Shown piece after piece: positions 279 through 62,576 of a DNA stretch of 64,000 nucleotides (the first letter of the stretch is position 1; every line of letters begins with the position of its first letter). The stretch lies in IMG/VR virus record IMGVR_UViG_3300025015_000021, positions 29,902 through 93,901 of that record; one strand, written 5' to 3'. The notes beneath the pieces were generated by a model that saw nothing but the letters and a program-made list of their open reading frames with translations, did not search any database and was not told where the DNA came from. This DNA comes from a virus. The translations under genes and the position numbers were made by a program.

Positions 279-771
279 TTATTATTTTGTCAAACTTAGT
301 TTTAGGTAAATTAACATTAACCTGGGTTAAGTTTGGCTGACCTCCTTTCTCAGAAATCCCCAGGGCAGCTCTTTCTTCCTGCATTCCGGTAATAATCATC
401 TTTCTTGCATCTTCAGAATTTTTAGGTTCTAAGACTTCCAATGCATTAAAACCTTTCTGCTGCAAAATCCTTGCGTCTTCTGCCTGGCGTTTTCTTATTC
501 TGTGTATTTCATCGGGCTTCATTTCCTCAATCTCCCCGAAATCCTCCTGAATCACTCTATCTACCGCTTGCTTTTTCGCCTTCTGCCAGCCTTTCATTTT
601 AAAACGTGCATAGTCATTATTAAGAACTCCTTTATCTTCTCTAAAATCCGAAGCCTTCTCCCAAGGACCCTGCATAAACTCTATCTTTAAAGCACGCCAG
701 TCATTGTGTTTTGTTGTTTTTTTCTGTCCTGTTTTAAGCGGTAATACTATTTCAGGCTGTTGGTTTTCCAT
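169..771 (-). CDS. Probable terminase small subunit
   Basis: Directly upstream of and overlapping terL; N-terminal DW-containing helical segment, coiled-coil middle, QVNVN near the C-terminus. Likely start MENQQPE at 771 rather than 849. Confidence 0.65.
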   Translation of the reverse strand: MENQQPEIVLPLKTGQKKTTKHNDWRALKIEFMQGPWEKASDFREDKGVLNNDYARFKMKGWQKAKKQAVDRVIQEDFGEIEEMKPDEIHRIRKRQAEDARILQQKGFNALEVLEPKNSEDARKMIITGMQEERAALGISEKGGQPNLTQVNVNLPKTKFDKIISGQDFAGILRFIAELKRERARRSGTTASSTSKTASG

Positions 772-59819: not shown

Positions 59820-62576
59820 TTAGGGATCTGATATCCCCGCTTTATCAGTATACTTTTTATTTTGTGCTTGGTGTGGTGTTTGTTCCGAAAAGGGTTTTGC
59901 TTTTGCTTGATGTGGTGTTTGTTGCGTAAATGGCTTAGTTTTTTCAGTTATGATACCAGTCTGGCTGTGGTATAGTCTTGCCTGAGTTCCATGCGGAGAT
60001 TGGGGTGTAATCAAAGTCGCCTTTCTGGTTTGGAATAAGATTGGCGGCAGGGTAGTAGATGTTGATGTAGAGGTTGACATAGTTGTCGTAGTGCTGCTTG
60101 ACGTGGTAGTCGAGGAAGTTGATGTAGAAGTCGAAGTAGATGTAGATAAAGTAGTAGAACTCGATGAACTTGTAGTTGTACTTGAGGTAGATGAGCTAGT
60201 TGTTGTCGAAGTACTCGTAGAAATTGTAGTCGAGGTTGAACTCGTTGTCGAGCTTGATATAGAAGTTGTAGTAGAACTGGTTGAGGTCGATTTTGATGTA
60301 CTTGTTGAGCTGCTCGTAGTAGTAGAAGATGTAGAAGTAGACCGAGATGAACTTGTAGTTGTAGAGCTAGTACTGGTAGAGGTTGACCTCGTAGTTGTTG
60401 TAGAAGTAGATTTGGTTGTTGAAGTTGAAATTGTCAAACTAGTAGAACTTGAAGTCGTTGTGGAAGATGTACTGGTACTTTGAGTTGTACTCGTTGACGA
60501 TGAGGTTGTTGTACTGCTTGTACTTGTTGATTTCGTTGTAGAGGTTGAAGAACTAGTCGTAGTACTACTTGTAGAAGTACTTTGTGTCGTACTTGTAGAA
60601 GAAGAAGTTGTTGTCGATGAAGTACTCGTACTTTGTGTTGTTGATGTTGAACTAGAAGTAATCGTCGAGGAAGTGGAAGTCGAAATTGAAGTTGAAGAAC
60701 TAGTCGAAATTGTTGTCGAGGTGGAACTACTCGTGGTTGTAGAAGAAGTTGAAGTACTTGTGCTAAGCGAAGTCGACGTACTAGTACTTTGAGTAGTTGA
60801 GGTAGAAGAACTTGTAGTCGTAGAACTTGTAGACGTTGATTGAGTAGTACTTGTGCTACTGCTAGTTGTTGTTGAGGAAGTAGAAGTTGTTGTTGAGCTG
60901 GATGTACTCGTAGATTGAGTTGTACTTGTTGATGAACTAGTTGTAGTAGAGCTGGTACTGGTACTTATAGAGGATGATGTTGAAGTGGATCGGGTTGTTG
61001 TGGTTGATGAAGAAGTGGTGGTAGATGAAGTAGAAGTAGAAATAGTTGTCGATGTAGAACTAGATGTAGTAGTGCTACTTGTGCTAGTAGATTGAGTCGT
61101 AGAACTACTAGAAGATGTTGAAGTGCTTTTAGTTGTACTAGTGCTGGAACTTGTAGTGGTACTGCTAGTAGACGTGCTTGTTGTGGTTGAGCTTGTAGTT
61201 GAACTGGATGTAGTAGTCGAACTTGTACTTGTAGACTGGGTAGTAGTTGTTGAAGTTGTTGGAGCTAATGTAGTAGTTGTAGAAGTACTAATTGTAGTAC
61301 TGGTTGAAGATGATGTTGTTGTGGAACTTGTACTCGTTGATCGTGTTGTGCTTGTACTAGTTGACTGAGTAGTACTAGTGCTACTAGAAGTAGTAGTTGA
61401 ACTCGTGGATGTTGTGGTGCTACTGGATGTCGTTGTAGAAATAGTCGTGGTTGTGCTACTGGATGTCGTAGTACTGCTTGTAGAAGTACTGGAACTTGTA
61501 GTGGTAGAACTTGTAGAAGTAGATTGTGTTGTTGAGGTTGATGTTGACTGAGTGGTAGATGTACTGGAAGAAGTTGTTGTACTACTTGTAGAAGTAGACT
61601 GCGTAGTTGAAGTCGTAGTCGATTGAGTAGTACTTGTAGAGCTACTAGTGGTAGTTGAACTCGTAGACGTACTTATAGAAGTTGAAGTACTAGTAGTCTG
61701 AGTGGTACTGGTACTTGAAGATGTGGTTGTAGAACTAGTTGATGTGGATATAGTTGAGCTCGTGGAGGTACTTTTGGTTGTTGAGGTTGATGAGCTAGTC
61801 GTAGTGGAACTTGTCGAAGTAGAAATTGTAGTACTAGTCGAGGTACTTTTGGTTGTTGAGGTAGAAGAGGAAGTAGTCGTAGAACTTGTTGAGGTACTGA
61901 TAGATGTACTCGTTGATGTTGACTGAGTGGTTGAAGTAGAGCTACTTGTTGTAGTTGAGGATGTGCTTGTCGTAATGCTGGTAGTTGTAGAAGTGGTTAA
62001 AGTAGTACTAGTGCTAGATGATGTGGTTGTACTAGAGGTTGAAGTACTAATAGTAGAACTCGTAGAAATTGTCCGGGTTGTACTCGTAGATGATGAAGTG
62101 GTTGTAGATGATGTACTGGTTGATTGAGTAGTTGTGGTAGAAGTAGATTTTGTTGTACTGGTTGAAGATGAAGTAGTTGTACTACTAGTTGATGTGGAAC
62201 TACTTATAGTAGTAGAAGTAGATTTTGTAGTACTGGTGGAGGAAGAAGTAGTAGTTGAACTAGTGCTGGTAGAGCTACTAATAGTTGTACTTGTAGATTT
62301 TGTGGTTGAAGTACTACTACTAGTGGTAGTTGAAGAAGTACTGGTAGTTAAGGAAGTTGATGTACTTATTGATTGAGTTGTACTTGTTGAAGAAGAAGTG
62401 GTTGTAGAAGTGCTAGTGGAAGTACTGGTAGTAGATGTACTAGTAGTCGAAGTCGTGGATGTAGAGGACGAAGTACTAGTTGAACTGGTAGAAGTACTGG
62501 TAGTAGTAGCTTCAGGTAAAGGTACTGTTACCCGAATTATGTATATCTTGCCGTAACTTCGCCATATTCTTGCCAT
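59820..62576 (-). CDS. Mucin-like protein consisting almost entirely of Ser/Thr (819-aa tract)
   Basis: 23-aa leader, S/T tract at 60051-62507, short basic tail with (T/S)PH repeats. Confidence 0.8.
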   Translation of the reverse strand: MARIWRSYGKIYIIRVTVPLPEATTTSTSTSSTSTSSSTSTTSTTSTSTTSTSTSTSTTTSSSTSTTQSISTSTSLTTSTSSTTTSSSTSTTKSTSTTISSSTSTSSTTTSSSTSTTKSTSTTISSSTSTSSTTTSSSTSTTKSTSTTTTQSTSTSSTTTSSSTSTTRTISTSSTISTSTSSTTTSSSTSTTLTTSTTTSITTSTSSTTTSSSTSTTQSTSTSTSISTSTSSTTTSSSTSTTKSTSTSTTISTSTSSTTTSSSTSTTKSTSTSSTISTSTSSTTTSSSTSTTQTTSTSTSISTSTSSTTTSSSTSTTQSTTTSTTQSTSTSSTTTSSSTSTTQSTSTSTTQSTSTSSTTTSSSTSTSSTTTSSSTTTTISTTTSSSTTTSTSSTTTSSSTSTTQSTSTSTTRSTSTSSTTTSSSTSTTISTSTTTTLAPTTSTTTTQSTSTSSTTTSSSTTSSTTTSTSTSSTTTSSSTSTTKSTSTSSSSSTTQSTSTSSTTTSSSTSTTISTSTSSTTTSSSTTTTRSTSTSSSISTSTSSTTTSSSTSTTQSTSTSSSTTTSTSSTTTSSSTSTTQSTSTSSTTTSSSTSTTQSTSTSTSLSTSTSTSSTTTSSSTSTTISTSSSTSISTSTSSTITSSSTSTTQSTSTSSTTTSSSTSTTQSTSTSSTTTSSSTSTTKSTSTSSTTTSSSTSTTQSTSTSSTTTSSSTSLTISTSTTKSTSTTTTRSTSTSTSSTTTSSSRSTSTSSTTTSSSTSTSKSTSTSSTTTSISSSTTSSTSTTISTSTSTTTSSSTSSTTTSSSSSTTLSTSTSTSTSTSSTTTSSSTTTTMSTSTSTSTTLPPILFQTRKATLITPQSPHGTQARLYHSQTGIITEKTKPFTQQTPHQAKAKPFSEQTPHQAQNKKYTDKAGISDP

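Follow-up and report, generated by a model that had tools for sequence, protein, structure and literature searches.

The Mimivirus fibrils and the chlorovirus capsid protein are self-glycosylated with nucleotide-sugar pathways of the virus, which provide amino-dideoxy and methylated sugars, and with soluble glycosyltransferases (GTs), independently of the host machinery. In bacteria, the serine-rich repeat protein (SRRP) adhesins (GspB, Fap1, PsrP and SraP, with GtfA/GtfB) and the SdgA/B system rely on cytoplasmic O-glycosylation of a long Ser-rich stalk, which a GT4 enzyme starts, further GTs extend and which presents a binding domain. In mycobacteriophages Che8, Corndog and Myrna, a few GTs are reported (Freeman et al. 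2023, Cell Host Microbe, as cited in later papers) to decorate the C-termini of capsid and tail-tube subunits; the phage GTs and methyltransferases lie in or near the structural genes, and the phages' own particle proteins are modified in the cytoplasm. Here we analyse the viral contig IMGVR_UViG_3300025015_000021, and in particular its last 64 kb (positions 29,902–93,901; this whole stretch of 64,000 nucleotides is called the window, its coordinates are given with the prefix w, and 'genome' marks whole-contig coordinates). On its late strand the contig encodes four proteins with long serine/threonine (S/T) tracts together with about 15 GTs, some in a cluster inside the window and most in an island outside it. 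Our comparative data make it likely that the tracts are glycosylated by the island enzymes in the host cytoplasm, and we refer to this arrangement as a glyco-fibre cassette.

In its proposed action the system resembles the glycosylation of mycobacteriophage virions and that of SRRPs, and is a member of neither. As in the mycobacteriophages, the GT genes accompany virion genes: they are found on both sides of terS, terL and the portal gene and also between the genes for head morphogenesis and protease, all in one orientation. In contrast to the mycobacteriophages, the acceptors would be dedicated tracts of 170–820 residues on fibre-type proteins, not the major capsid protein (MCP) or tail tube, and about 15 GTs come with genes for nucleotide-sugar synthesis. 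The likeness to the SRRP system lies in the long stalk, its proposed GT4-type start and the putative binding domain that it carries, whereas the signal peptide, accessory Sec genes, LPXTG anchor, DUF1975 and GtfB-like partner (Pfam) are missing here, and an S/T repeat with a period of about 25 residues takes the place of the SRRP pattern SxSx. With the giant viruses the phage has in common its own sugar pathways and many soluble GTs, one of which (w752–2293) finds its best Protein Data Bank (PDB) match in the chlorovirus GT 3oy2; those viruses differ in having eukaryotic hosts, other acceptor proteins and no mucin-like S/T modules. Full-text literature searches returned no description of a phage in which mucin-like tracts are paired with GT islands.

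Results

Long Ser/Thr tracts on fibre-type proteins

Four proteins of the late (minus) strand contain tracts that consist of 88–93% Ser plus Thr. The tail-tip protein (w39654–43559, 1301 aa) has its tract at about residues 386–597 (212 aa; 188 S/T), p310 (w55932–56864, 310 aa) at residues 138–309 (172 aa) behind a globular N-domain of 137 aa, p941 (w56987–59812, 941 aa) at residues 375–917 (543 aa) between a ConA-like N-domain (1–375) and a C-terminal peptide of 24 aa, and p918 (w59820–62576, 918 aa) at residues 24–842 (819 aa; 759 S/T), followed by a C-terminal tail of 76 aa. An initial annotation of this DNA, made from its letters, had counted 209, 169, 541 and 819 tract residues in proteins without signal peptide. 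Our re-measured lengths bear this out with small corrections, and a Kyte-Doolittle scan, which is not a dedicated predictor, likewise found no hydrophobic N-terminal segment on any of the four. The HK97-type MCP (w51914–52933, minus strand) and the tail tube (w47930–48913, minus strand), with S/T fractions of 0.17 and 0.21, carry no tract; the tracts are found on fibre-type proteins.

The tracts repeat with a period of about 25 aa around the core STSSTTTSSSTSTT[KQ], and the hexapeptide SSTTTS occurs 74 times. Across each tract the annotated frame is the only one free of stop codons. Each of the six Ser and four Thr codons is in use, and at the DNA level the repeats agree only at 63–80% (Tandem Repeats Finder), which points to selection on the protein rather than to a recent microsatellite expansion. 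A microsatellite or assembly artefact is ruled out by the single open frame, the diverse codons and the retention of the motif in relatives at about 60% core identity. The tracts stand in frame between conserved domains, in a late operon that adjoins the protease, MCP and tail genes.

In the tail-tip protein, whose gene lies downstream of those for Dit and the tape measure protein, the ConA-like N-domain (1–385) and the tract are followed by three DUF7483 repeats (about 609–900; PF24299, 3e-12) and a conserved C-terminal core; in relatives the core is 47–65% identical, the N-domain is swapped and the S/T linker is retained. The stop codon of p310 is separated by 2 nt from the head protease gene (w55084–55929, minus strand), which follows directly downstream of the S/T genes. 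Among 5.8 billion proteins the N-domain of p310 has just four homologues, all of them S/T-tailed, and in the ESM Atlas it falls into unnamed viral clusters only; the homologue in a related phage (L022/G008) is 74% identical and has the same tail. From gene position, three of the four S/T proteins may be placed on the head.

Two smaller features of these proteins deserve mention. The S/T proteins of the head module end in a short non-S/T peptide with (V/S)DP, namely IVDP in p941 (w56987–57061), ISDP in p918 (w59820–60047) and VVDP in L022 (about 5240–5359), and this terminal peptide may be a conserved anchoring or processing signal. The N-terminus of p918, MARIW, equals the first five residues of the fibre-head domain described below, the domain itself being absent; p918 may thus derive from a p941-like gene by loss of the head.

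A ConA-like head domain on the fibres

An N-terminal domain of about 380 residues, which starts MAR(L/I)xSxGFE, is common to p941, the tail-tip protein and p397 (w62586–63779, minus strand), the last being a third paralogue without S/T tract for which a word-index homologue search gave the self-match only. The AlphaFold2 (AF2) model of this fibre head, built on a 44-sequence alignment, has a pLDDT of 92 and a pTM of 0.91, and Foldseek matches it to the PL20 glucuronan lyase 2zzj, TtX122, a PL14 lyase, Cip1, a trans-sialidase lectin domain and the Hc-N domain of clostridial neurotoxin. As modelled, the fibre head is a ConA-like jelly roll. Since the nearest structures of this fold are lyases and lectins, the p941-type architecture can be described as a head that would bind or cut glycans, followed by an S/T stalk and a short peptide at the C-terminus, and it recurs in 6 of the 150 top family representatives. 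The head-domain family has 7,151 representatives at E≤1e-3, in which the domain mostly occupies the N-terminus, frequently occurs on its own and in some cases is found inside giant proteins. One homologue is gp13 of Streptomyces phage Hiyaa, encoded between the capsid and adaptor genes.

A glycosylation island outside the window

The island extends over genome 877–25467 on the late strand. It encodes ten further GTs, eight of the GT2 type (one split by an intein) and two of the GT-B fold, and four further methyltransferases, one of which is a sugar C-methyltransferase. Its nucleotide-sugar enzymes are a PseC/LegC-like aminotransferase, a GNAT protein, two SDR dehydratase/epimerases, a PIG-L deacetylase, an ATP-grasp enzyme and a UDP-sugar dehydrogenase homologue (genome 23326–24162, minus strand), which at 278 aa comprises the N-terminal and central domains only and is equally short in all relatives. 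Over the whole genome we count about 15 GTs, three of them weak matches, and 6 methyltransferases, all on the late strand; the glycosylation genes (about 34 kb) and the S/T genes (10.4 kb) add up to 47% of the contig. A Pfam and hydropathy scan for Wzx-, Wzy-, ABC- or PGT-like polytopic proteins found no export gene in the conserved island, and SecA2, SecY2 and Asp export genes or a cell-wall anchor are absent among the annotated open reading frames (ORFs).

One of the two island GT-B enzymes (genome 24163–25467, late strand; GT4-type, PF00534 1e-6), encoded after the head-morphogenesis gene, stands out by its conservation. Its EX7E motif (E326 and E334) is invariant in nine sequences, down to 33% identity, and among phages with the same backbone it is the best-conserved protein, with 73–80% identity against 55–68% for portal and TerL. 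In the ESM Atlas it belongs to phage-specific or phage-dominated GT1 clusters. We found no homologue in 50,697 GenBank phage records, and at least 149 loci of viral contigs (IMG/VR) encode a relative. Sequence searches against PDB chains with two GT-B enzymes, the fibre head and the tail-tip core yielded nothing useful.

Tracts and island occur together

The initial annotation proposed that the phage decorates its S/T fibres with its own transferases, and suggested looking for co-occurrence of long tracts and GT clusters in related phages. Such co-occurrence is indeed seen, with the correction that the genes which co-vary with the tracts are those of genome 877–25467, outside the window, while the cluster inside it does not follow them. 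We collected 80 viral loci with a fibre-head profile, made from a narrower alignment than the 44-sequence one, and screened 50 complete records for GT2 genes with the family model. In 11 of the loci there are tracts of 50 aa or more, among them near-pure S/T ORFs of 1,607 and 1,255 aa. All 11 S/T-positive records have at least two GT2 genes (2–8), as compared with 17 of the 39 S/T-negative records (Fisher p=0.001), and tract length correlates with GT2 count both overall (rho 0.57, p=1e-5) and within the S/T-positive records (rho 0.80). Where the tail behind the head domain is S/T-rich, GT2 is present in 14/15 cases, versus 14/35 for other tails (p=5e-4); some GT2-positive records scored as S/T-negative have tails of the SPSASxSPS type just below the threshold. 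The nearest GT2 gene is co-directional with the S/T ORF and at most 8.4 kb away in 11/11 records, and within 2 kb in nine.

A profile of the conserved GT-B enzyme matches five of the 50 records, which are those with the five longest and purest tracts (724–1,989 S/T residues in the locus), and none of the 39 S/T-negative records or the six with short or impure tracts (hypergeometric p ~2e-4, computed by hand). Starting from the enzyme, an S/T ORF is found within 10 kb in 60 of the best 80 of the at least 149 viral loci (26/30 of the full-length ones), compared with 7/75 controls (p=2e-17), and all 105 S/T-tract ORFs in these loci are on the strand of the enzyme. Two of the apparent exceptions are close relatives of this phage in which the S/T genes are further away. 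In the head-domain tree the S/T state changes at least eight times.

Transfer between unrelated phages

Five genomes of 43–64 kb and 40–43% GC, three rated complete and one with terminal repeats, bear a related island. Each has 7–17 island ORFs in common with the present phage at 23–64% identity, among them the GT-B enzyme, the Ugd-like protein, GT2s, the second GT-B enzyme, the aminotransferase, SDRs and methyltransferases, and in addition the fibre head and some homing endonucleases. At the same time, tblastn at E≤1e-3 detects in these five genomes no match for TerL, portal, MCP, protease, scaffold, tail tube, tape measure, Dit, adaptor or endolysin. In all five the GT block begins with the GT-B gene, and the S/T ORFs come next, on that strand too. 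Since the islands are held in common while the core virion proteins are without match, island and S/T fibres move together between otherwise unrelated lineages, and we regard this as the strongest argument for a joint function.

In island-sharing phages the conserved GT-B gene is closely preceded by genes for small proteins (G011 46121–46486, G012 33980–34405, G014 13532–13903 and G017 28919–29329) with a conserved N-terminus of about 55 aa (DPxNP..GDEY.D/NTT...W) and an S/T tail of 70–95 aa. These may be tagged decoration proteins. The present phage has at this position a 124-aa ORF without S/T tail.

Relatives with the same backbone

Phages whose TerL is 60–68% identical retain the order GT2, methyltransferase, GT2, RGP, GT2, GT4-like, terS, terL, portal, head morphogenesis, small ORF, GT-B, Ugd-like, GT2. 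In the four whose structural region is visible (G001, G007, G008 and L029) S/T tracts recur with the motif STSSTTTS[SQ]STSTT[KR], and the flanking domains are swapped: the tract is carried by an S/T-tailed Dit, by tail-tip proteins with other N-domains and by the p310 homologue. One 1438-aa multi-domain protein of a backbone relative has four S/T linkers and ends in VVDP, like the ends of p941 and p918.

If the ends of the contig are joined, the gene order becomes portal, head morphogenesis, island, 171-aa protein, p397, p918, p941, p310, protease. This order is supported by two relatives, as in G001 an S/T ORF directly follows the last island GT2, and the island and S/T ORFs of G011 flank a homologue of the 171-aa protein.

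The cluster around the terminase genes

In this genome a second cluster is wrapped around the terminase. The initial annotation had read the minus-strand genes directly upstream of terS/terL as a GT4, three GT2s, an RGP/mutase-like enzyme and two SAM methyltransferases. Pfam confirms the GT4-like enzyme, the GT2s (w3836–4657, 44–61% identical in relatives; w7033–7707, 1e-17; w9047–9952, 70–75% identical in relatives), the RGP/GT75-like protein (w5411–6286; PF03214 8e-33; 33–35% identical to its G001 homologue) and an adjacent pair of S-adenosylmethionine (SAM) methyltransferases (w7972–8472 and w8469–9020), all on the minus strand; the product of a further methylase gene within the cluster, w4720–5508, acts on DNA (N6/N4 type) rather than on sugars. 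The cluster also encodes an RNase T-like exonuclease (w6455–7036; Pfam). The RGP-like protein is possibly a UDP-arabinopyranose mutase. The position next to the terminase genes stands, with the qualification that only the first 278 nt of terL (genome 28434–30179, minus strand; PHROG 4e-106) are inside the window, in the region w1–849, and that the putative terS (w169–849, minus strand) is assigned by conserved position only and matches no family.

The GT4-like enzyme directly upstream of terS (w752–2293, minus strand; 513 aa) has a weak Pfam match to GT1/GT4 and a model (AF2) with GT-B/GT4 fold. Its Foldseek matches have TM scores of 0.6–0.78; the top one, 3oy2, is followed by MshA, BshA and PimA, and SdgB ranks 50th. 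E333 and E341 of its EX7E motif are invariant. Within the 50 viral records its distribution does not follow the S/T tracts. G005 and G006, more distant phages of this backbone whose MCP is 46–59% identical, retain the GT4-like/GT2/methyltransferase cluster upstream of terS and are devoid of both the conserved GT-B island and long S/T tracts. We considered this enzyme as an SRRP GtfA-like protein and rejected the assignment, as the fold is that of a generic GT4, DUF1975 is missing and no GtfA is among the fold matches; a role specific to the tracts was rejected as well, given its presence in S/T-less relatives and its independence of the tracts.

Two more minus-strand genes of the cluster, encoding a 2H phosphoesterase (w3268–3888; PF13563 7e-6; weak match to the anti-CBASS protein Acb1) and a protein of 284 aa with about five hydrophobic segments (w2325–3179; the one polytopic ORF of the hydropathy scan), are located between a GT2 gene and that of the GT4-like enzyme. 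They look like an inserted moron, because both are absent from syntenic relatives.

Discussion

A model for fibre glycosylation

That the island enzymes glycosylate the S/T tracts is our preferred explanation, and it builds on what is directly established: the anatomy of the locus, its conservation, the fold of the fibre head, the missing export genes, and an association between tracts and island that is seen in the statistics and in their joint transfer. The enzymes, soluble and expressed late, would act before or during virion assembly. The conserved GT-B enzyme would be the best candidate to recognise the tracts and add the first sugar, with STSSTTTSSSTSTTK as a candidate acceptor peptide. 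About ten GT2 enzymes and the further GT-B enzyme would lengthen the chains and the methyltransferases would cap them, while unusual donors could be made by the truncated UDP-sugar dehydrogenase, the two SDRs, the PseC/LegC-like aminotransferase, the GNAT protein, the PIG-L deacetylase, the C-methyltransferase, the O-methyltransferases and the RGP-like mutase. The product would be a stiff, hydrated and protease-resistant bottle-brush stalk, which might hold a ConA-like lectin or lyase head off the particle (p941, tail-tip protein) or form bare brushes (p918, tail of p310). Such stalks could serve reversible binding to host surface glycans and shielding; both the methylation of the glycan and these shielding and adhesion functions we infer.

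More broadly, we think it somewhat more probable than its opposite that a mobile cassette of this kind is widespread in uncultured tailed phages, in which a phage-specific GT4 starts dense O-glycosylation of pure Ser/Thr tracts, the chains are completed by GT2s, methyltransferases and nucleotide-sugar enzymes in sets that vary, mucin-like bottle-brush fibres result on the virion, and the whole moves between backbones. The present genome has the largest version that we have seen here.

Other acceptors and other sources of glycosylation

It is conceivable that the GTs act on the host envelope (capsule, teichoic acid or S-layer glycan) by way of host lipid carriers and exporters, and that the S/T tracts are unrelated linkers. 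Cyanomyoviruses, for example, carry large sets of cell-wall-type GTs whose acceptor is not known (PMC12801897), and both the persistence of the in-window GT4-like/GT2/methyltransferase cluster in S/T-less relatives and the one, poorly conserved, five-segment membrane protein in it (w2325–3179) would agree with this. However, a flippase, polymerase, ABC exporter or priming phosphoglycosyltransferase is missing from the island, that membrane protein is not found in relatives, the GT genes are intermixed on the late strand with terS/terL/portal and head genes, and the island is tied to the S/T ORFs by position, strand and co-transfer. We therefore consider modification of the host envelope unlikely. 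Phage DNA, hypermodified with sugars as a defence against restriction, is another potential acceptor for some or all of the GTs, especially those of the in-window cluster, among which the N6/N4 DNA methylase and the RNase T-like exonuclease are encoded; the RGP-like protein together with Ugd-like, Uxs-like and epimerase enzymes could supply an arabinose donor. To our knowledge, no DNA modification system described so far uses as many as about 15 GTs. Phages are known to glycosylate their DNA with diverse glycans (Pyle et al. 2024, as cited in PMC12619734), but a scan of about 70 ORFs, which cover the small ORFs in part and come from a contig that is 82% complete, detected no dCMP/dUMP hydroxymethylase, thymidylate-synthase homologue, deazaguanine gene or DNA polymerase. 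As no acceptor-base pathway was found and the association of island and tracts would be left unexplained, DNA as the acceptor seems distinctly unlikely to us; for the in-window cluster, with its DNA methylase and exonuclease and its retention in relatives without tracts, DNA glycosylation is possible.

The tracts might also be glycosylated by host enzymes, or be unglycosylated entropic spacers, with the phage GTs making a free or lipid-linked glycan. S/T-rich linkers exist in many secreted bacterial proteins, and no phage enzyme can be assigned to protein O-glycosylation from sequence or fold. However, virion assembly takes place in the cytoplasm, in which the general O-glycosylation systems of bacteria do not act, and tracts and island are transferred together between unrelated phages, which makes this explanation very unlikely. 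Several points weigh against glycosylation of the tracts by the island enzymes. Every link is comparative and the modification itself is a prediction. None of the enzymes shows DUF1975 GtfA features, an HPAT/SERGT match or another hallmark of a protein O-glycosyltransferase; for the HPAT family (PF23452) the whole genome gave no match at E≤1, and neither did the control genomes. The UDP-sugar dehydrogenase is without its C-terminal UDP-binding domain, and the contig is called linear and is 82% complete. Independent pairs in the head-domain tree go the expected way in 2.4 cases and the opposite way in 0, too few for significance, and many of the enzyme-centred loci may be related phages. Finally, part of the GT repertoire may serve another acceptor, because the in-window cluster occurs in G005 and G006 without S/T tracts.

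If our explanation is true, mucin-like glycoprotein fibres are made by a whole class of environmental phages, which use enzymes of their own and devote up to about half a genome to this. It would represent a new phage surface chemistry for adhesion, shielding and particle stability, and would add to the cytoplasmic protein O-glycosyltransferases a new family whose acceptor is simple and repetitive and which could be useful for glyco-engineering. It would also offer an explanation for many orphan glycosyltransferases in viromes.

Genome organization and additional observations

The single viral contig of 93,901 bp has about 35% GC and belongs to an uncultured tailed phage with a genome organization of the siphovirus type. 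CheckV estimates the completeness given above, and the 93.9-kb contig has no terminal repeat. The minus strand encodes the HK97-type MCP, protease, adaptor, tail tube, tape measure, Dit, the large tail-tip protein and an amidase endolysin; the head module occupies w51914–55929 and includes a putative scaffold gene (w53061–54299, minus strand), and the portal and head-morphogenesis genes are located just beyond the left edge of the window. A few early genes are on the plus strand at w17–34 kb and encode a KaiC/DnaB-like ATPase, an intein-bearing tyrosine recombinase and a DnaD-like protein.

A 10.9-kb contig (L028, JAKLGS010000020.1) in a Patescibacteria bin of metagenome-assembled sequence is wholly a fragment of a related phage: its TerL is 51% identical and the order GT-terS-terL-portal is the same as here. 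The host of the 93.9-kb phage is possibly a member of the Patescibacteria, this binning being the sole hint.

The genome has two inteins with LAGLIDADG domains, one in the tyrosine recombinase/integrase (w25861–28020, plus strand) and one in a GT2 of the island (genome 20360–22486, minus strand); in relatives this GT2 is intein-free. At least six HNH/NUMOD homing-endonuclease genes are dispersed across the structural and glycosylation modules (w38324–39163, w43561–43953, w50921–51805, w14980–15648, genome 16445–17023 and genome 22458–23114), and some of them are homologous to genes in otherwise unrelated phages.

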